DNA of 15,184 nucleotides, taken from the IMG/VR virus record IMGVR_UViG_2516143081_000005; one strand, 5' to 3'. Position numbers and translations under genes: made by a program. The notes under the pieces were generated by a model, which saw only the letters and a list, made by a program, of their open reading frames with translations, did not search any database and was not told the origin of the DNA. The stretch comes from a virus (lineage: Duplodnaviria > Heunggongvirae > Uroviricota > Caudoviricetes). The first letter of the stretch is position 1, and each line of letters begins with the position of its first letter. Of the stretch, positions 55 to 10,975 are shown piece after piece.

Positions 55-639
55 TTACTCCCTGACAGGGTTCGTAGGCCACTCAATATCAGGTGCAGTT
101 GATGTATCAACACGGTTCAGCAACACCCGATACTTTTTCCAGGCTTCCAGCAATGAGGTTTCTTCCTCCGTTGCGATTTCCAGATCTACAGCATCCTGAA
201 GTGGCGCAATATGCTCACTGGCTACCTGCATCAGGCTGTTTTTTATTTCTTCCGCCTCTCGGATCCGGAACAGTTTTTCTGCTTCTGCATCTTTCACCCA
301 GGCTGTGCCGTTCCACTTCTGAAACTCCCCTTCCGGCGATAACCAGGTAACATTTTCCGGTAACGGACCGAGTTCAGAAATAAATAACTCGTCCCCTGAC
401 GCTACGTCATAAACCGTTTTACCCCGATGGTCTTCAACGAGATGCCACGATGCCTCATCACTGTTGAAAACAGCCACAAAGCCAGCAGGAATATCTGGTG
501 GTGCAATATCGGTACTGTTTGCTGGCAGACCTGTATGAGGCGGAATATATGCATCACCTTCACCAATAAATTCATTAGTTCCGGCCAGCAGATTATAAAT
601 TTTTATGGTCCGTGCTTGTTCACTCATTCTGAATGCCAT
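55..639 (-). CDS. tfa: Tail fibre assembly protein (lambda Tfa-like, 194 aa)
   Basis: ORF translation [34 protein letters not shown]... is near-identical over its full length to lambda Tfa as recalled. ATG at 639-637 overlaps the upstream stop (TAATG). Confidence 0.9.
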
Positions 640-824
640 TATGCAAGCCTCACAATATAGTTAAATGCGATGTTTTTGACGGTGTTTTCCGCGTTACCAG
701 CAGCGTTAACGGTGATGGTGTGTCCATGTGAGCCAATCGCAACGGAGTGCGTATGAGCACCAATACCGACAGTATGTGCGTGTGCACCTGCGCTTGCAGC
801 AGTGCCGGACAGTGAGTGGGTAAC
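639..824 (-). pseudogene. 3' remnant of a side tail fibre gene (about 60 C-terminal codons)
   Basis: Manual minus-strand translation gives ...[48 protein letters not shown], the conserved C-terminus of lambdoid side tail fibres. It runs straight on from the terminase-fragment stop at 825-827, with no start or N-terminal body. Confidence 0.6.
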
Positions 825-1913
825 TCAAGACCTGTTGCCCCCTGCGTATTGTCTGTCAGCGCGGTTATCCCCTTTCGTTTTCATCCAGTCTTTGACAATC
901 TGCACCCAGGTGGTGAACGGGCTGTACGCCGTCCAGATGTGAAAGGTCACGCTGTCCGGCGGCTCAATCTCTTCACCGGATGACGAAAACCAGAGAATGC
1001 CATCACGGGTCCAGATCCCGGTCTTTTCGCAGATATAACGGGCATCAGTGAAGTCCAGCTCCTGCTGGCGGATGACGCAGGCATTATGTTCGCAGAGATA
1101 AAACACGCTGGAGGGATCATCCGGCGTCCATTTGAGGCCAAACGGCGTCTCTTTATCGCCAAATTTAAGGTACTGCTCCTCCCCGCAGTGCGGGCAGGCA
1201 ACATGAAAACGCATAAAATGCGGGGATTCACTGGCTGCACGCTCAATCTGACAGGTGCCTCTCACTTTGGGCGTGGAGCCACGGATGGACTTTGGCCAGA
1301 CCGAGCCTTCAATACGTTTGTCACCCAGGAACGTCGGAGAGCCTTCCTGTTCAATATCCTCATCAAAGGCAGCAAGTTCATCATAACCCGCCACATCCAC
1401 CGACTTTTCACGGTAGTTTTTTGCCGCTTTACCGCCCAGGCACCAGAAACCACGCCCATTGGTGAAACGCTTCATGGTGAGCGTGTTATCCCGGTGCTTT
1501 TTGCCATACCACGGGGCCAGCGCCAGCAGCGACGGAATATCGCGGATGGTCGGCTCAACGTGGGTTTTCATAAAGTTCTCGGCATCACCATCCGTCGGCA
1601 ACCAGATAAGGGTGTTGCGCTGCTTATGCTCTATAAAGTAGGCATAAACACCCAGCAGCATTTTGGAATAACCGACACGGGCAGACTTCACCACATTCAC
1701 CTCACGGATGTAGTCGCTGCCCATCGCATTCATGATGGCCCGCTGAAAGGGCAGTGTTTCCCAGCGCCCTTCCTGGTATGCGGATTCTTTCGGGAGATAG
1801 TAATTGGCATCCGCCCATTCAACGGCGGTCTGTGGCTCCGGCCTGAACAGTGAGCGAAGCCCGGCGCGGACAAAATGCCGCAGCCTGTTAACCTGACTGT
1901 TCGATATATTCAC
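825..1913 (-). pseudogene. aaaD: Terminase large subunit (lambda gpA) N-terminal fragment, truncated at about residue 348
   Basis: Translation MNISNSQVNRLRHFVRAGLRSLFRPEPQTAVEWADANYYLPKES... matches lambda gpA from residue 1 to about KTKGD, then diverges (NRADRQYAGGNRS*). GTG start and 26-nt overlap with Nu1 as in lambda. The C-terminal nuclease/ATPase part (lambda gpA is about 641 aa) is absent. Confidence 0.85.
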
Positions 1914-2433
1914 TCAGCAACCCCGGTATCAGTTCATCCAGCGCGGCTGCTTTGTTCATGGCTTTGATGATATCCCGTTTCAGGAAATCAACATGTCGGT
2001 TTTCCAGTTCCGGAAAACGCCGCTGCACCGACAGGGGAATCCCGTCGAGAATACTGGCAATTTCACCTGCGATCCGCGACAACACGAAAGTACAGAATGC
2101 GGTTTCCACCACTTCAGCGGAGTCTCTGGCATTCTTCAGTTCCTGTGCGTCGGCCTGCGCACGCGTAAGTCGATGGCGTTCGTACTCAATAGTCCCTGGC
2201 TGGAGATCTGCCTCGCTGGCCTGCCGCAGTTCTTCAACCTCCCGGCGCAGCTTTTCGTTCTCAATTTCAGCATCCCTTTCGGCATACCATTTTATAACGG
2301 CGGCAGAGTCATAAAGCACCTCATTACCCTTGCCACCGCCTCGCAGAACGGGCATTCCCTGTTCCTGCCAGTTCTGAATGGTACGGATACTCGCACCGAA
2401 AATGTCAGCCAGCTGCTTTTTGTTGACTTCCAT
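1888..2433 (-). CDS. nohD: Terminase small subunit Nu1 homologue (181 aa), apparently intact
   Basis: Translation MEVNKKQLADIFGASIRTIQNWQEQGMPVLRGGGKGNEVLYDSAAVIKWYAERD... is essentially lambda Nu1 at full length (181 aa). ATG at 2433-2431. Confidence 0.9.
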   Translation of the reverse strand: MEVNKKQLADIFGASIRTIQNWQEQGMPVLRGGGKGNEVLYDSAAVIKWYAERDAEIENEKLRREVEELRQASEADLQPGTIEYERHRLTRAQADAQELKNARDSAEVVETAFCTFVLSRIAGEIASILDGIPLSVQRRFPELENRHVDFLKRDIIKAMNKAAALDELIPGLLSEYIEQSG

Positions 2434-2439
2434 TGCTCA

Positions 2440-2660
2440 TTCCACGGACAAAAACAGAGAAAGGAAACGACAGAGGCCAAAAAGCTCGCTTTCAGCACCT
2501 GTCGTTTCCTTTCTTTTCAGGGGGTATTTTAAATAAAAACATTAAGTTACGACGAAGAAGAACGGAAACACCTTAAACCGGAAAATTTTCATAAATAGCG
2601 AAAACCCGCGAGGTCGCCGCCCCGTAACCTGTCGGATCGCCGGAAAGGACCCGCAAAATG
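2440..2660 (-). other. cos packaging site (cosB - cosN - cosQ), lambda-type, apparently intact
   Basis: Reverse complement of 2434-2622 reads GGGCGGCGACCTCGCGGGTTTTCGCTATTTATGAAAATTTTCCGGTTTAAGG...GGAAACGACAGGTGCTGAAAGCGAG..., matching the lambda left end (cosB with Nu1/IHF sites) with a few substitutions. 2623-2700 matches the lambda right end (...GATCCGACAGGTTACG). Confidence 0.85.
2611..2622 (-). other. cosN: 12-nt cohesive-end sequence (GGGCGGCGACCT on the minus strand)
   Basis: Plus-strand AGGTCGCCGCCC at 2611-2622 is the reverse complement of the lambda cohesive end, flanked by CGTAACC (cosQ side). Confidence 0.8.
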
Positions 2661-2821
2661 ATAATAATTATCATCTACATGTCACAACGTGCATCTACGC
2701 CATCAAACCACGTCAAATAATCAATTATGACGCAGGTATCGTATTAATTGATCTGCATCAACTTAACGTAAAAACAACTTCAGACAATACAAATCAGCGA
2801 CACTGAATACGGGGCAACCTC

Positions 2822-3016
2822 ATGTCAACGAAGAACAGAACCCGCAGAACAACAACCCGCAACATCCGCTTTCCTAACCAAATGATTGAACAAATTAACA
2901 TCGCTCTTGAGCAAAAAGGGTCCGGGAATTTCTCAGCCTGGGTCATTGAAGCCTGCCGTCGGAGACTAACGTCAGAAAAGAGAGCATATACATCAATTAA
3001 AAGTGATGAAGAATGA
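2822..3016 (+). CDS. ylcI: Small basic protein (64 aa), YlcI-like; possibly ribbon-helix-helix DNA-binding
   Basis: ORF MSTKNRTRRTTTRNIRFPNQMIEQINIALEQKGSGNFSAWVIEACRRRL...: basic N-terminus, a short beta-strand-like RNIRFP then two helices, which resembles an RHH fold (inference). Size and position between cos and the ybcW-like gene fit ylcI of DLP12 (from memory). Confidence 0.55.
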   Translation: MSTKNRTRRTTTRNIRFPNQMIEQINIALEQKGSGNFSAWVIEACRRRLTSEKRAYTSIKSDEE

Positions 3017-3116
3017 ACATCCCGCGTTCTTCCCTCCGAACAGGACGATATTGTAAATTCACTTAATTACGAGGGCATTGCAGTAATTGAGTTGCAGTTT
3101 TACCACTTTCCTGACA

Positions 3117-3144
3117 GTGACAGACTGCGTGTTGGCTCTGTCAC
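3117..3144. terminator. Hairpin between convergent ylcI-like and ybcW-like genes; possible bidirectional terminator
   Basis: gtgacaga (3117-3124) pairs with tctgtcac (3137-3144) around a 12-nt loop. No strong U-tract on either side. Confidence 0.3.
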
Positions 3145-3180
3145 AGGCTAAATAGTTTGAATGATTAGCAGTTATGGTGA

Positions 3181-3387
3181 TCAGTCAACCACCAGGGAAT
3201 AATCCTTCATATTATTATCGTGCTTCACCAACGCTGCCTCAATTGCTCTGAATGCTTCCAGAGACACCTTATGTTCTATACATGCAATTACAACATCAGG
3301 GTAACTCATAGAAATGGTGCTATTAAGCATATTTTTTACACGAATCAGATCCACGGAGGGATCATCAGCAGATTGTTCTTTATTCAT
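3181..3387 (-). CDS. ybcW: Uncharacterised prophage protein (68 aa), YbcW-like
   Basis: ORF of 68 aa with ATG at 3387-3385 and GGAG about 9 nt upstream. Size and position match ybcW of DLP12 and the small ORF near the right end of lambda (from memory). Confidence 0.65.
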
Positions 3388-3672
3388 TTTGTCGCTCCAT
3401 GCGCTTGCTCTTCATCTAGCGGTTAAAATATTACTTCAAATCTTTCTGTATGAAGATTTGAGCACGTTGGCCTTACATACATCTGTCGGTTGTATTTCCC
3501 TCCAGAATGCCAGCAGGACCGCACTTTGTTACGCAACCAATACTATTAAGTGAAAACATTCCTAATATTTGACATAAATCATCAACAAAACACAAAGAGG
3601 TCAGACCAGATTGAAACGATAAAAACGATAATGCAAACTACGCGCCCTCGTATCACATGGAAGGTTTTACCA

Positions 3673-4083
3673 ATGGCTCAGGTTGCCATTTTTAAAGAAA
3701 TATTCGATCAAGTGCGAAAAGATTTAAACTGTGAATTGTTTTATTCTGAACTAAAACGTCACAACGTCTCACATTATATTTACTATCTAGCCACAGATAA
3801 TATTCACATCGTGTTAGAAAACGATAACACTGTGTTAATAAAAGGACTTAAAAAGGTTGTAAATGTTAAATTCTCAAGAAACACGCATCTTATAGAAACG
3901 TCCTATGATAGGTTGAAATCAAGAGAAATCACATTTCAGCAATACAGGGAAAATCTTGCTAAAGCAGGAGTTTTCCGATGGGTTACAAATATCCATGAAC
4001 ATAAAAGATATTACTATACCTTTGATAATTCATTACTATTTACTGAGAGCATTCAGAACACTACACAAATCTTTCCACGCTAA
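3673..4083 (+). CDS. ybcV: Uncharacterised prophage protein, YbcV-like (136 aa from the ATG at 3673; ORF is open from 3550)
   Basis: ORF 3550-4083. The internal ATG at 3673 has a GGAAGG Shine-Dalgarno 8 nt upstream and gives 136 aa ([19 protein letters not shown]...), matching the expected YbcV size. Start is ambiguous. Confidence 0.7.
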
Positions 4084-4373
4084 ATCATAACGTCCGGTTT
4101 CTTCCGTGTCAGCACCGGGGCGTTGGCATAATGCAATACGTGTACGCGCTAAACCCTGTGTGCATCGTTTTTAATTATTCCCGGACACTCCCGCAGAGAA
4201 GTTCCCCGTCAGGGCTGTGGACATAGTTAATCCGGGAATACAATGACGATTCATCGCACCTGACATACATTAATAAATATTAACAATATGAAATTTCAAC
4301 TCATTGTTTAGGGTTTGTTTAATTTTCTACACATACGATTCTGCGAACTTCAAAAAGCATCGGGAATAACACC

Positions 4374-4667
4374 ATGAAAAAAATGCTACTCGCTACTGCG
4401 CTGGCCCTGCTTATTACAGGATGTGCTCAACAGACGTTTACTGTTCAAAACAAACCGGCAGCAGTAGCACCAAAGGAAACCATCACTCATCATTTCTTCG
4501 TTTCTGGAATTGGGCAGAAGAAAACTGTCGATGCAGCCAAAATTTGTGGCGGCGCAGAAAATGTTGTTAAAACAGAAACCCAGCAAACATTCGTAAATGG
4601 ATTGCTCGGTTTTATTACTTTAGGCATTTATACTCCGCTGGAAGCGCGTGTGTATTGCTCACAATAA
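4374..4667 (+). CDS. borD: Bor lipoprotein (serum-resistance moron), 97 aa
   Basis: MKKMLLATALALLITGCAQQ... has a signal peptide with lipobox LITGC. The full sequence matches lambda Bor as recalled. Confidence 0.9.
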   Translation: MKKMLLATALALLITGCAQQTFTVQNKPAAVAPKETITHHFFVSGIGQKKTVDAAKICGGAENVVKTETQQTFVNGLLGFITLGIYTPLEARVYCSQ

Positions 4668-4673
4668 TTGCAT

Positions 4674-4699
4674 GAGTTGCCCATCGATATGGGCAACTC
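4674..4699. terminator. Perfect 10-bp stem-loop between convergent bor and Rz
   Basis: gagttgccca (4674-4683), loop tcgata, tgggcaactc (4690-4699). It overlaps the Rz stop codon. Confidence 0.4.
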
Positions 4700-5160
4700 T
4701 ATCTGCACTGCTCATTAATATACTTCTGGGTTCCTTCCAGTTGTTTTTGCATAGTGATCAGCCTCTCTCTGAGGGTGAAATAATCCCGTTCAGCGGTGTC
4801 TGCCAGTCGGGGGGAGGCTGCATTATCCACGCCGGAGGCGGTGGTGGCTTCACGCACTGACTGACAGACTGCTTTGATGTGCAACCGACGACGACCAGCG
4901 GCAACATCATCACGCAGAGCATCATTTTCAGCTTTCGCATCAGCTAACTCCTTCGTGTATTTTGCATCGAGCGCAGCAACATCACGCTGACGCATCTGCA
5001 TGTCAGTAATTGCCGCGTTCGCCAGCTTCAGTTCTCTGACATTTTTGTCGCGCTGGGCTTTGTAGGTAATGGCGTTATCACGGTAATGATTAACAGCCCA
5101 TGACAGGCAGACGATGATGCAGATAACCAGAGCGGAGATAATCGCGGTTACTCTGTTCAT
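4699..5160 (-). CDS. rzpD: i-spanin Rz (153 aa)
   Basis: [21 protein letters not shown]... has an N-terminal TM helix then a coiled-coil-like periplasmic domain. ATG at 5160-5158 overlaps the endolysin stop (ATGA). ORF is open from 5172. Confidence 0.85.
4758..4940 (-). CDS. rzoD: o-spanin Rz1 lipoprotein (60 aa), embedded in the +1 frame of Rz
   Basis: [22 protein letters not shown]... has a lipobox VVGC followed by a proline-rich stretch (PPPPPAW...PPPDW). Lies entirely inside Rz. Confidence 0.8.
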
Positions 5161-5654
5161 TGCTGACCCCACAAACAGATTTCACGCTCAATCTCACGAC
5201 GAGTCATGAGACCTTTCCATTGCTTACCGCCAGCATATGTCCAGCGACGTAGCTGATCACATGCGCCTTTGATATCGCCCTGGTTTATTTTGCGAAGAAG
5301 CGTCGATGTTCTGAAATTGCCAGCACCCACGTTGTAAACGAATGAGTAAAGAGCGCCGCGCGTTGTTTCCGGTATATCGACTTTGATGTACGGGTTAATT
5401 TGTCTGGCGACAGTGGCAAGGTCTTTATTCAAGAGTGCTTTGCATTCTGCTTTGGTATACGTTTTACCGAGCATGATGTCTTTTCCTGTATGCCCGTGAC
5501 ATACAGTCCATACACCAACAATATCTTTATATGGTATGTAGCTGACACCTTCCAGACCATCGTCACCACTCGGACCAGTGATGAGCACAGACGCTATGGC
5601 AACAGCCCCACCACCAATAGCAGCTGCTACAGCCTTGCGTAATGATGGCGACAT
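5157..5654 (-). CDS. rrrD: SAR endolysin (phage 21 R-type lysozyme, 165 aa)
   Basis: N-terminal Gly/Ala-rich signal-anchor-release segment ([20 protein letters not shown]), then a T4-lysozyme-like core with E/D/T catalytic residues ([17 protein letters not shown]). Confidence 0.9.
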
Positions 5655-5869
5655 TATTCACCTCTCGCAGCCTTACGCTTATCTTCTTTAATCTTGAAAT
5701 AAAGGTTTGTCAGGTACGTCAGCAGGCCAAATACCAGGCTACCCAGCACTCCAATTGCCGCCCACTGTGAGGGCGTGACTTTATCTAGCAGCTGTAAAAA
5801 CCAGTACCCGGCACTACCTGCTGAGGTGCCATAGGCGACACCCGTTGTTAACTTATCCATGGATTTCAT
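5654..5869 (-). CDS. essD: Class II holin (phage 21 S-type pinholin, 71 aa) with dual-start motif
   Basis: [30 protein letters not shown]... has two TM segments. ATG codons at 5869 and 5860 (M1-K2-S3-M4) give the holin/antiholin dual start. Confidence 0.9.
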
Positions 5870-5992
5870 AACCCCACCTCGCAGACAAAGCGGGTGTAAA
5901 TTGAGGGAATACTACGAAACGTAACAGACTCGGAGTCAGTGAATAACTCAGGTATTGGGTTATCAGCTAATATCGAGACTCAAAAAATGGAA

Positions 5993-6014
5993 AAACCCGC
6001 TCGACGGCGGGTTT
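5993..6014 (-). terminator. Rho-independent terminator on the minus strand upstream of the holin; candidate tR'
   Basis: Minus-strand reading AAACCCGCCGUCGAGCGGGUUU followed by UUCCAUUUUUUGAG. Stem 5993-6000 / 6007-6014 with loop 6001-6006. Lies about 125 nt upstream of the holin start. Confidence 0.5.
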
Positions 6015-6441
6015 AAGCTGTGTGACGAAGTAACCACTCTTAACAGCATAACCAATTTTTTACGTACGTAAACCACTAAATGATATTTGCGAGAATGCTA
6101 CCGAGTATTGAAAACACCACTACAAATACATAAGCAAATCTCAACAAATAACCAACAAATAATTTCCAGTGTTATTTTTAGCCGATTTAAATTGAACCTT
6201 CAAATTATAGAGCACTTATAAATAACAGCCGTTAATATAAATTGGCTAATAGATTTATTTTTATTCAGCCAAGAGCTATAAATAGGATTCGATAGAAAAA
6301 AGTTCAGATAAAAATAGAGATCTACTTCACAAATCAAACGAGAAACCAAAACTTACATCTTGAAATAATCACATTGATTAGATGAATATTTATCGCGCAG
6401 TGACATCATTTTTTAATAATAGTTCAAAAAAAGGGCTCACG

Positions 6442-7539
6442 ATGAAAAAATTAACAGTGGCAATTTCTGCTGTAGCTGCATCAGTACTGATGGCGATGTC
6501 TGCTCAGGCAGCTGAAATTTATAATAAAGACAGTAACAAGCTGGATCTGTACGGGAAAGTTAATGCTAAGCACTACTTCTCCTCTAATGATGCAGATGAT
6601 GGTGATACTACTTATGCCCGTCTTGGCTTCAAAGGTGAAACCCAAATCAACGATCAGCTGACTGGTTTCGGTCAGTGGGAATATGAATTCAAAGGCAACC
6701 GCGCTGAATCTCAAGGTTCCTCCAAAGACAAAACCCGTCTTGCATTTGCAGGCCTGAAATTCGGTGACTACGGCTCAATCGATTACGGCCGTAACTACGG
6801 TGTAGCATACGACATCGGTGCGTGGACTGACGTTCTGCCAGAATTCGGTGGCGATACCTGGACCCAAACAGATGTGTTCATGACTGGTCGTACCACTGGT
6901 GTTGCAACCTATCGTAACAACGACTTCTTTGGTCTGGTTGATGGTCTGAACTTTGCTGCTCAGTACCAAGGCAAAAACGATCGTAGCGATTTCGATAACT
7001 ACACTGAAGGTAACGGTGATGGCTTCGGTTTCTCTGCTACCTATGAATACGAAGGATTCGGTATCGGTGCAACTTATGCGAAATCTGATCGTACCGACAC
7101 TCAAGTTAATGCAGGGAAAGTTCTTCCTGAAGTATTTGCTTCCGGTAAAAATGCAGAAGTTTGGGCCGCAGGTCTGAAATATGACGCTAACAACATTTAC
7201 CTGGCCACTACCTATTCTGAAACCCAGAATATGACTGTATTTGCTGATCACTTCGTTGCTAATAAAGCTCAAAACTTCGAAGCTGTTGCACAATATCAGT
7301 TCGATTTCGGTCTGCGTCCGTCCGTTGCTTACCTGCAATCTAAAGGTAAGGATCTTGGAGTATGGGGCGATCAGGACTTAGTCAAATATGTTGATGTAGG
7401 TGCAACCTATTACTTCAACAAAAATATGTCTACTTTCGTTGATTACAAAATCAACCTGCTTGACAAAAATGACTTCACTAAAGCACTCGGTGTAAGCACT
7501 GATGACATCGTTGCTGTAGGTCTGGTTTACCAGTTCTAA
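6442..7539 (+). CDS. nmpC: Outer-membrane general porin (OmpC/OmpF/PhoE family, NmpC-like), 365 aa, apparently intact
   Basis: [23 protein letters not shown] | [16 protein letters not shown]... has a signal peptide with AQA cleavage site, the porin N-terminal signature and the C-terminal ...VGLVYQF beta-barrel motif. ATG at 6442 preferred over the ORF-track start at 6382. Confidence 0.9.
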
Positions 7540-7676
7540 TCTGATTACGAAAAAGATATGTTGCGGGAGGCTTTGCCTCCCCAACATATAAGTGGCTCCC
7601 TCAAGCCACTTCCTTTAGGAGCACAACCTTGCTTCTAACTATATAAACCTTCTGTTATATATTACCCTTTATTTTT

Positions 7677-7702
7677 GGGGGCGTTGCAACGCCCCATTTT
7701 TA
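7677..7702 (+). terminator. Rho-independent terminator downstream of the porin gene
   Basis: Palindrome ggggcgttgcaacgcccc (7677-7694) followed by ATTTTTAAT. The minus-strand version is followed by an A-rich tract, so it is plus-strand-specific. Confidence 0.5.
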
Positions 7703-7728
7703 ATAACTTTTAGTAAACAACTGGCATA

Positions 7729-8112
7729 TTAATTAGAGTTATTAACAACGATATCCATCTCTAACCGGATATCTAATGCCATTAACATCCCTTCAATTAT
7801 ACCCTCAGCCTTCTGTAACCTTTTCCCGATATAACCATCAGAGCAGCAATGCTTACCTGCCAGTGACATGAATGTCATACCGACTACATAATAATCTACT
7901 AATAAATCGTGCAAATCGCTGTTGTTCTTTTTCAGACGGGCCATGCACCCGCAAATGAGCATCGCGTCATCGTCACAACATTGCGGGCGAGATTTTACTT
8001 TTGAAGGAATTAATCCCTTAAAACCGGCGGCAATGGACGACCAGGTCACATCTTCATGATTATTAGCCGCCCACGCTCCCCAACGCTCAAGAACCATCTG
8101 AATATCACGCAT
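7729..8112 (-). CDS. quuD: Late-gene antiterminator Q (phage 21/82 type), 127 aa
   Basis: [24 protein letters not shown]... with Cys-rich motif ([12 protein letters not shown]...HCC). First ATG at 8112 with GGAG upstream; the ORF-track start at 8127 is a TTG. Confidence 0.85.
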
Positions 8113-8197
8113 CAACTTACTCCACAAAAATCAGACCAGAACGCCAATTACAAGCAAAAATCAACAAAACAGTATTAGTTGATTGTTATCTCTGACT

Positions 8198-8338
8198 TCA
8201 TACTCCTGCTCCTGTCAGGGTTTTGGCGTAATTCTTCAGTATTCGGTAATCGGTCAAAACAGAACCGGGGAAACGATATAAGCGCAGACGCCCCCAGCGG
8301 TGGCGAAGAAGTTCTGCCATATTAAACTCAAACATCAT
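8198..8338 (-). CDS. ylcG: Small protein (46 aa), YlcG-like; not in the ORF track
   Basis: Manual translation [46 protein letters not shown]. Start overlaps the rusA stop (ATGA); stop at 8198-8200. Confidence 0.6.
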
Positions 8339-8697
8339 TCATTCCCCATTTCGGTGATGGTCAGTTCCAGCCTCCCACCTTTGGTAACAGGCATCTTCAC
8401 AACGCGGTAATCAACGACCTGAGCATCATCCAGCCAGAAACCTGCTTTAGTGAGTGCGTCAAAAGCGGCTTTTTGCAGATTATCCAGGTCACGGCGACGG
8501 CGATCCGGCATGTGGCACTCAATGCGGATTTTCACAGGCATAGCCAGGCCGATATCCAGCATTGCGTTTTTAATGATTCGGGCGACGTTATCGCGGTATG
8601 CCTGCCCCTCTGCGCTGACGTGCGTGCGCCCGCGATTATGGCGGTAATAGCGATTATTGCTCGGAGGCCAGGGTAATGTGATGCTGTAGGTATTCAC
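8335..8697 (-). CDS. rusA: Holliday junction resolvase RusA (120 aa)
   Basis: [43 protein letters not shown]... is the RusA family signature at the correct length. Confidence 0.9.
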
Positions 8698-8984
8698 GCC
8701 TTAATAACCCCCTCTTTCAGCCAGATAACCTGTGTTCTCGCCATACCTTCCAGCGCGCATTCTTTTGCATATGCAGCATCGACAAAATGTGTGCGGCGGT
8801 CGATTTCGTCGTGGCAGGCAGAACATGCAATGGTGGCAATCAGGTCTGGCGATTTGGTACCGGTGCCGCACAATCCAGTCAGCCGGATATGTGCCAGTAC
8901 AGACGTTTCAGGGTTGCCATTACATACGCCAGGGATTCTTACCTGGCATTCCCGACTACGCGCTGCTTTTCTCAAATCAGCCAT
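8694..8984 (-). CDS. ybcO: YbcO-like nin-region protein (DUF1364, putative nuclease, 96 aa)
   Basis: [35 protein letters not shown]...CSACHDEID is Cys/His-rich. ATG at 8984 is preceded by AGGAGG. ORF is open from 9023. Confidence 0.8.
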
Positions 8985-9700: not shown

Positions 9701-9796
9701 AAACGTCCCCGTTTAGCGCAGAAGTCACCGGAGTTGTTCAGGCTCCAATGGCATGATTATGGCTGGTTGATTATTGGAAATCAAATGTGCTGAAAA

Positions 9797-10306
9797 TTAG
9801 TCTGCCAAGTCTTCCTCAGTCGCAACTGGGTAATTCCAAATATCAAAAAAAGCTATAGCCTCCTGCCATTTGCTCCATAAGTTATCAAGTACTTGTGTAG
9901 GTTCCGTACTTTTAAAAACAGAATCAGCCGCATCACCGTTATGAACTTCCTCGTACAGTTCCATTATTAGCAGATTAACAAAGTACTGTTTCAACATTAA
10001 TGCCTGATTACCTTCTTTCTGCTGGCTATCCTGCTTGATGATCTCCATCGCCCGTACTAGGCACCTGATGATATCCGCTGCATCATTAACGCTCCATTCA
10101 GATCCGCGCTTATCTTTAGCTGATGAATTGGCTCTCTCAGCGCAAGCCTTTAAAGACTCATAAAGGTAAACTCTATTTTGTAGCTGCAGCGCTTTTTTTG
10201 ACGTGTACCAACTTGCAAGCGCCGACCCCGCTGCGGCTAATGTGCCAAACGCAGAAATACCTGCTGCTATTGCACTTAAGTCGGCACTGTCAAAGTTCCA
10301 CATCAT
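9797..10306 (-). CDS. Hypothetical protein (169 aa) with one N-terminal transmembrane helix and an acidic helical C-terminal domain
   Basis: MMWNFDSADLSAIAAGISAFGTLAAAGSALASWYTSKK... has a hydrophobic stretch around residues 10-33. ATG ATG start with AAGGTG Shine-Dalgarno 5 nt upstream. Own upstream region after a terminator. I recognise no family. Confidence 0.6.
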   Translation of the reverse strand: MMWNFDSADLSAIAAGISAFGTLAAAGSALASWYTSKKALQLQNRVYLYESLKACAERANSSAKDKRGSEWSVNDAADIIRCLVRAMEIIKQDSQQKEGNQALMLKQYFVNLLIMELYEEVHNGDAADSVFKSTEPTQVLDNLWSKWQEAIAFFDIWNYPVATEEDLAD

Positions 10307-10488
10307 CGTTACACCTTATATAAATACCCCTCAGTAATATCCAATAAGGTATGTGCACAATCAATATAATTTTATCCGTATCGGCACATAGCGATTTGAA
10401 CGCTACTGGTAATGGTATATTTTAGATTATATCGTCCAGTTTACAGCACCCGTATTTTATGAAATGGACTCGCATATTACCCAAAAAA

Positions 10489-10521
10489 TGCCAGCACTTC
10501 CGTCATCGTAGAATGCTGGCA
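10489..10521 (-). terminator. Rho-independent terminator on the minus strand downstream of the 107-aa gene
   Basis: tgccagca (10489-10496) pairs with tgctggca (10514-10521), with inner ttc/gaa pairing. On the minus strand it is followed by UUUUUUGG (reverse complement of 10481-10488). Confidence 0.5.
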
Positions 10522-10540
10522 GTATTTCTAACTAGTGACT

Positions 10541-10864
10541 TTATTGGAACAGATTCTGACGGAAATATGGTAACACTCGACTCCACTTATCATCCAGCCA
10601 CGGCTGGAATTTTACATGTGCCGTTTCTCTGGCGAGGATTGCTCGCGCTCTGTTGAGTATCTGGGGATATTCTTGCTCGATAGAAGTAAAGCGGCCGGCT
10701 TCGCGGTGCTCCGCAACCTGAAGTAGTGGAGTAACGTTCTGGCAGGCAGTTAACATCACATCACCTGCTCGCCATAACCAAGCACGTGCACAAAGTTTGT
10801 TATCAGTGAATTGTTTTGTGATTGGGTATTGTTGAACTGCTAGAACGAGAACGCCAGCATCCAT
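10541..10864 (-). CDS. Hypothetical protein (107 aa), no recognisable family
   Basis: ORF with ATG at 10864 and AGGGA about 7 nt upstream. It sits between the serine recombinase and the 169-aa membrane protein and is followed by its own terminator. Codon usage looks ordinary; no homology recognised. Confidence 0.5.
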   Translation of the reverse strand: MDAGVLVLAVQQYPITKQFTDNKLCARAWLWRAGDVMLTACQNVTPLLQVAEHREAGRFTSIEQEYPQILNRARAILARETAHVKFQPWLDDKWSRVLPYFRQNLFQ

Positions 10865-10975
10865 TGGCAGTCCCTATAGTAAAACCATAGCTCAGGACGC
10901 TTCGTTCAGGATAGATAATTTTATTGTACTTACCTAACTTTCTTACTATAGCACGGTTGAAAAAGTGATTATTAC

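Follow-up and report, generated by a model that had tools for sequence, protein, structure and literature searches.

A DLP12-family cryptic prophage of Escherichia coli retains a lambda-type cos site and an intact small-terminase gene, probably as a sequence-competent relic rather than a vehicle for host gene transfer

Judged from its sequence, the element carried by the window (the whole stretch of DNA analysed, 15,184 nucleotides) is a cryptic lambda-like prophage of the DLP12 family (qsr'-type) from Escherichia coli, in which positions 2440-2700 are a cos site followed by an intact small-terminase gene of the nohD allele. Considering all observations together, we hold it very probable that this cos is a sequence-competent relic, which would be dead in cis but could be cut in trans, and which would take part in recombination with phages without giving rise to mature transducing particles. 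The practical importance of such a site would be that of a reservoir, making the chromosome a hot recombination partner for incoming lambda-like phages and driving phage mosaicism, and not that of a vehicle for the transfer of host genes. The deletion allele of DLP12 is the only previously undescribed feature here, all else being known. Indeed, the cos and nohD of DLP12 are already annotated in K-12, and the DLP12 cos has already been described by De Paepe et al. 2014. In K-12 both are located in a 3.3-kb block which is 98% identical to lambda, and both have been shown by experiment to work once recombined into lambda.

The window is contained exactly in contig AJQW01000024.1 (GCA_000259425.1) and its end falls at the int stop codon. 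The fusion protein encoded by its truncated large-terminase gene, A', has an exact match on record in this one contig only, as found by an exact-protein look-up. Compared with the DLP12 of K-12, which spans ~ 17 kb from intD to tfaD, the window displays ~ 97.7% identity in the stretches that both have, which make up 83% of its length, with an integrase segment that is 99.7% identical and a gene order like the one of K-12, namely intD ... ybcK ... rusA, quuD, porin, essD, rrrD, rzpD, bor, ybcV, ybcW, ylcI, cos, nohD, A', tfaD. However, the two elements are distinct. Their cos sites differ at 3 of 232 positions, and K-12 DLP12 is without positions 494-1605 of the window, i.e. a further 1112 bp are missing, whereas the window keeps 349 codons of A, a stub of stf and an intact tfa. 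In addition, IS5 in the porin gene and IS3 in ren are present in K-12 DLP12 and absent from the window, P is longer in the window and the ybcL-ybcM cargo has been replaced. The K-12 DLP12 junction was found in 368 of the 5426 complete E. coli genomes. The A'/stf junction of the window was absent as a contiguous stretch from these 5426 genomes, in which only Qin-type arrangements joined from two to three pieces were retrieved, and an exact-pattern scan of species-representative genomes found none.

Several other features were observed outside the cos region. The porin gene located between Q and S (6442-7539, plus strand) is of the nmpC type and encodes 365 aa with a full-length Pfam Porin_1 match; it is uninterrupted, the K-12 copy having its IS5 at the 3' end. 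At the ybcL/ybcM place, 1.2 kb (9773-10966) are without counterpart in K-12 DLP12, and two ORFs are found there on the minus strand, one of 169 aa (9797-10306) with no Pfam match and one of 107 aa (10541-10864) with the C-terminal domain of the P22 antirepressor. Between 13158 and 14134, ren is intact and a nearly full-length P ORF (225 aa) abuts and overlaps the int region, the junction of the early-region deletion at this place being different from that of K-12. Downstream of the window's left end, the source contig (locus 11914-14612) carries an intact ybcY methyltransferase gene (222 aa), which is frameshifted in K-12, and a gene for a 494-aa alpha/beta-hydrolase is found at the position of appY, before ompT.

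When aligned with lambda (NC_001416), positions 866-5160 of the window (minus strand) correspond to the stretch that runs from lambda 45966, where Rz starts, across 48502/1 and up to 1758 within A. The identity is 98.86% in an alignment of 4296 columns, a homology that is far beyond chance. Within this block the cohesive-end 12-mer of cosN, GGGCGGCGACCT, is read on the minus strand at 2611-2622, exactly where an earlier note on this DNA had placed cosN, and matches lambda 1-12 without any difference. With the flanking nick-site pairs cosN covers 2609-2624, and the whole stretch corresponding to lambda 48487-52 is identical in the window. The cosQ heptamer GGGTCCT, which is the packaging termination signal, is found at 2646-2652 (minus strand), spaced from cosN as it is in lambda; it is identical to the lambda heptamer, which we take to be 48473-48479, and the differences closest to it are at 48471 and 48486. 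This 7-bp element is highly conserved (Feiss et al. 2015; Murialdo & Feiss 2022). Regarding cosB, R3 (lambda 50-65), the critical binding site of the small terminase subunit, is located at 2558-2573 (minus strand) and carries C53>T. The R3-R2 interval, which holds the IHF site I1 in lambda, occupies 2516-2557 (limits approximate) with two changes, 73 A>G and 102 T>C. R2 (lambda 108-123) is found at 2500-2515 on the plus strand, inverted relative to R3 and R1, and is identical to lambda, while the accessory R1 (lambda 152-167) is at 2457-2472 (minus strand), the R2-R1 spacer being 1 bp shorter through a deletion at lambda 138.

Over the 252 bp from lambda 48441 to 190, ten differences are observed, at 48444, 48459, 48467, 48471 and 48486 on the cosQ side and, on the cosB side, 53 C>T, 73 A>G, 102 T>C, the 1-bp deletion at 138 and 188 A>G. 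All of them spare the cohesive ends and the nick-site pairs, as well as the cosQ heptamer, bp 55-63 of R3 and the cores of R2 and R1, and the alignment with lambda shows no indel between cosN and R3. The limits of R3, its segment in contact by NMR (bp 55-63), the functional bp 56, 58 and 59 and the importance of the cosN-cosB spacing are taken from published work (Feiss et al. 2015; Murialdo & Feiss 2022). The sole change in R3, and the only one of the ten to call for suspicion, is the one at bp 53, where a C common to all three lambda R sites in our R-site alignment is a T in the window; it lies outside the 55-63 contact segment, and bp 56, 58 and 59 are as in lambda. Hence the description of cosQ, cosN and cosB as almost identical to those of lambda, made in the earlier note, holds: the heptamer, cosN, the R3 core, R2, R1 and the spacing are unchanged, cos (2434-2700) is 96% identical overall, and all the defining sequence features of a lambda-type complex cos are present, i.e. 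the 12-nt end with its flanks, cosQ, R3-I1-R2-R1, their spacing and the R3 contact bases. Several intergenic stretches near cos are 100% identical to lambda, while the differences within cos avoid the experimentally defined elements.

Wherever the cos of the window differs from lambda, its base is that of K-12 DLP12. Moreover, three phages whose records were deposited as complete genomes, PhiR29_1 (PV340556), Lambda_4B5 (LR595863) and 1H12 (NC_049947), have these variants as well. The cos of PhiR29_1 differs from that of the window at 1 of 232 positions, and both T53 and the deletion at 138 are shared by the three phages and K-12 DLP12. At bp 85 the window differs from all three phages, and at 48472 from K-12 and two of the three phages, having the lambda base in each case. 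The records of Lambda_4B5 and 1H12 begin at, or at most 1 base from, the cohesive end, and on the strength of such starts and of the GenBank metadata the three are probably viable phages. Substitutions in the cosB R sites or in cosN that abolish recognition had been put forward as what would speak against a usable site; cosN has none, and the only one in the R sites is the C53>T of R3, which is common to sequenced phages. Furthermore, the 232-bp cos is 100% identical in the cattle strain E. coli 13E0767, where it lies in a DLP12-type prophage carrying A, W, B, C (annotated as frameshifted), D, E, FI, FII, Z, U and V. Among 5426 complete E. coli genomes, 3985 have a lambda-type cos (at least 80% of the 232-bp query), the median number of matching places being two per genome, and the feature is therefore commonplace.

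The gene next to cos, Nu1 (1888-2433, minus strand, start codon at 2433), encodes the terminase small subunit and is full length, as previously noted: its 181 aa are identical to lambda gpNu1 at 180 residues, the only change being the conservative L132I, and match Pfam Phage_Nu1 over the full length (E = 9e-101), K-12 NohD having three differences from gpNu1. The large subunit is truncated, also in line with the earlier note. Indeed, A' (825-1913, minus strand) comprises codons 1-349 of 641 followed by 13 unrelated residues and a stop, with one substitution relative to lambda in these 349 codons; the ATPase domain has been kept, almost nothing is left of the nuclease domain and the portal-binding part is absent. 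A linker of 45 bp (821-865), found in Qin-type elements as well, joins A' to a 3' remnant of the side tail-fibre gene stf (640 to ~ 820, ~ 180 bp, minus strand), which is matched by blastn to lambda 21824-22608 and to the Qin-type element. It is followed by the tail-fibre assembly gene tfa (55-639, minus strand), which is intact (194 aa, Pfam Caudo_TAP E = 1.6e-44), and the stf-3'/tfa of lambda shows 91% nucleotide identity to the window copy. The statement that no head or tail genes are left is therefore in need of a small correction, as the intact tfa and the stf stub are still there. Upstream of cos, in the same late transcription unit, the lysis genes S (5654-5869), R (5157-5654) and Rz (4699-5160) are intact on the minus strand, and so is the late antiterminator gene Q (quuD, 7729-8112, minus strand, Pfam Phage_antitermQ). 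By analogy with lambda, Q would be required for transcription to run through the lysis genes, cos, Nu1 and A'.

The element cannot cut its own cos because A' is without nuclease domain, and in cis the site would be dead altogether, there being neither proheads nor a replication origin. Cutting in trans is plausible, as the site has every sequence feature that a terminase of lambda specificity requires in order to recognise and nick it. The relevant helpers would be phages with such a terminase. HK97 would not suit as a helper, its cos and terminase being unrelated to those of lambda. Phage 21 discriminates more than 1000-fold against lambda cosB, and lambda DNA is packaged by the N15 terminase (Feiss et al. 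2015; Murialdo & Feiss 2022). With respect to phi80, the identity to the nu1-A region of DLP12 is only 79% (De Paepe et al. 2014). The phages having the same variants and the active recombinants between lambda and DLP12 described below give indirect support to a site that would be bound and nicked by terminase with IHF. In such a sequence of events, the lambda-specificity terminase of an infecting or induced phage, together with IHF, would bind R3-I1-R2 and nick cosN. Terminase would then remain bound to the cosB/Nu1 end and move in the direction of decreasing window coordinates, i.e. through A', tfa, ybcY, tfaX, the hydrolase gene, ompT, envY, ybcH, nfrA and nfrB, and recombination enzymes would have access to the end on the other side (ylcI, ybcW, ybcV, bor, Rz, R, S).

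The real consequence, which is documented for DLP12, is homologous recombination, probably break-stimulated, with the incoming phage over the near-identical block of 4.3 kb, by which the lysis, bor, cos and nu1 alleles of DLP12 are donated to phages and mosaics are formed. Published observations on K-12 are consistent with this. De Paepe et al. 2014 marked the DLP12 block and selected lambda recombinants, 10 of 19 right-hand junctions of which adjoin cos and 3 of 19 lie beyond it. All the recombinants tested were active, including those with R, Rz or nu1 of DLP12 in place of lambda's, and recombination with DLP12 was about a hundred-fold more frequent than with Rac or Qin and concentrated at cos (De Paepe et al. 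2014). In order to explain that half of the junctions adjoin cos, the same authors proposed that terminase cuts the DLP12 cos, which was offered as an inference and not as a demonstration.

It could be, instead, that a helper terminase not only cuts cos but also packages the adjacent chromosome (A', tfa, ompT, envY, nfrAB onward), and thus transfers host genes in the manner of cosmids and cos-type satellites, as the earlier note had envisaged. The first half of this reading is reasonable, since the cos is sequence-competent, a helper terminase can initiate in situ at a chromosomal cos and the recombination hotspot at the DLP12 cos suggests cutting during lambda infection. Initiation at a chromosomal cos by the terminase of a helper is established (Feiss laboratory), and in the helper-packaging assays of that laboratory a chromosomal 'passive prophage' between two chromosomal cos sites was packaged at ~ 2 phage per cell. 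It is the second half that lacks support. We took as a cosmid-like substrate one with a second co-oriented cos ~ 38-51 kb downstream, and neither a second cosN (allowing one mismatch) nor cosQ plus cosN was found. The scan covered 11.8 kb of the source contig on the downstream side and, in K-12, 49.6 kb of DNA in synteny, on which the negative relies past the end of the contig. A cosN-like 12-mer with two mismatches, GGGCAGCGACCA, located 40.7 kb downstream in K-12 (locus position 41096), was considered as a terminator and rejected, as it has no cosQ and about two such matches are expected by chance per 50 kb strand. According to published work, cos terminases require a second cos in order to terminate, and uncut protruding DNA blocks tail attachment. 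With no second co-oriented cosQ-cosN within a lambda genome length, packaging cannot terminate, and mature transducing particles are therefore not expected. According to the literature of the 1970s on lambda docL particles, a single cos gives only defective heads with one cohesive end.

Nor is multimeric substrate to be expected. No O gene, ori or primase was detected among the ORFs scanned in the element, the far end of which holds only the P remnant, ren and int; the element is without origin because the O gene is absent, and without O gene or ori it cannot form concatemers. An excised circle of the DLP12 type would moreover be far below packageable size. Excision does not rescue mobilisation, as there is no replicon for concatemers and a one-cos monomer of such size is not a packaging substrate. 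In addition, nearly all host reads obtained from purified lambda particles of a K-12 lysogen (reads PRJEB33536) lie no more than ~ 25 kb from the lambda prophage, although DLP12 was not a specific object of the study concerned, and any reads coming from the block identical to lambda would be ambiguous in their mapping. Cutting in trans, for which all the recognition elements are present and which is already in the literature, therefore stands as plausible, whereas mobilisation resembling that of cosmids or satellites has neither the second cos nor the origin it needs, and we consider it unlikely.

A further reading is that retention has been selected, cos, Nu1 or the nuclease-less A' acting against superinfecting lambdoid phages as a decoy for terminase, a dominant-negative subunit or a suicide break of the chromosome, or Nu1 having been domesticated to serve the host. 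Nu1 is indeed intact, with 181 aa, in three elements with different truncations of A, the truncation points beside intact cos and Nu1 being at ~ lambda 1018 in K-12 DLP12, at lambda 1758 in the window and at ~ lambda 1895 in the Qin-type element, and Q and the upstream lysis genes are intact too. However, this progression is also one of an A remnant shrinking by successive deletions, as decay predicts. Specific conservation of cos was looked for and rejected: cos is the most diverged, and not the most conserved, piece of the 98.9% block, hence there is no sign of special selection on it. The substitutions in A' relative to lambda, 19 synonymous and 1 non-synonymous, are the signature of recent descent from working phages and do not call for new selection. 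Finally, lambda grows and recombines productively on K-12, which has both DLP12 and Qin (De Paepe et al. 2014). Selected retention thus appears highly improbable, and descent as a relic is the preferred account: cos would have been inherited without change from a complete lambda-like phage, which would have lost its head and tail genes through the internal deletion between A codon 349 and the 3' end of stf.

An orphan cos of this kind would be more than a relic in two cases, either (a) as the start of cos-to-cos packaging where a co-oriented cos lies 38-51 kb downstream, or (b) if it were kept with Nu1 as a protection of the host population from phages of lambda specificity. Taken jointly, we regard the two as very unlikely. 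If (a) were true, a defined chromosomal block, here ompT-nfrAB-cus-ent, would be transferred at high frequency, and if (b) were true, protection would come from terminase-triggered cutting or from subunit poisoning. More generally, if orphan cos sites bracket packageable lengths of chromosome, they could make a predictable helper-dependent route of transfer, given that at least one lambda-type cos is found in about three quarters of complete E. coli genomes. It is scarcely credible that the site is non-functional, disabled for terminase binding by C53>T in R3, by the change in the I1 region or by the 1-bp R2-R1 loss. It is true that C53 is conserved in R3, R2 and R1 of lambda and that cos has ten differences in 252 bp. 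Against this, the changes in question recur in phages with records beginning at cos and in a prophage that has the morphogenetic genes A to V, and lambda remains active when the recombination junction lies beyond the DLP12 cos. Moreover, neither the known critical positions (56, 58 and 59) nor the spacing of cosN and cosB is altered, and R1 is only accessory.

Compared with known systems, the site resembles the cos of lambda itself, a complex type made of cosQ, cosN and cosB, with which it shares the heptamer, cosN, the R3 core, R2, R1, the spacing and the position upstream of Nu1. It is unlike the lambda cos in that it is present once, in the chromosome, and has neither a working large subunit nor proheads nor an origin next to it. 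In the 'passive prophage' dilysogens of the Feiss laboratory, terminase supplied in trans likewise starts at a chromosomal cos, but there a second cos follows one genome length downstream. Cos-type satellites (Gram-negative PICIs such as EcCICFT073, and cos SaPIs) and cosmids likewise have a lambda-like cosN that can be cut by a helper terminase, and an integrase is present. PICIs carry their own replication module together with Rpp, which retargets TerS to a different cosB, whereas the element described here has a genuine Nu1, a lambda cosB, no replicon and no Rpp. The possibility that it is itself a PICI-like satellite was accordingly rejected, the gene after cos being a full-length Nu1 and both replicon and Rpp being absent. 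Cosmids and satellites, unlike the element, are packaged from multimers, namely concatemers with an interval of lambda size between two cos sites of the same orientation.

The Qin cryptic prophage offers a parallel for the arrangement as a whole. Its cos-nohA-A'-stf'-tfaQ segment displays the same layout, with an intact cos, an intact Nu1 homologue and a truncated A fused toward the tail-fibre genes. Qin differs in its chromosomal site and neighbours (ynfO, ydfO, pinQ), in a longer A' (to ~ lambda 1895) and in a larger stf remnant. A 51-bp linker (window 821-871) is found in the Qin-type element as well (locus 5518-8837). Together, these likenesses suggest that the left arms of DLP12 and Qin share an ancestral deletion, or have exchanged by gene conversion, and were later eroded by further deletions.
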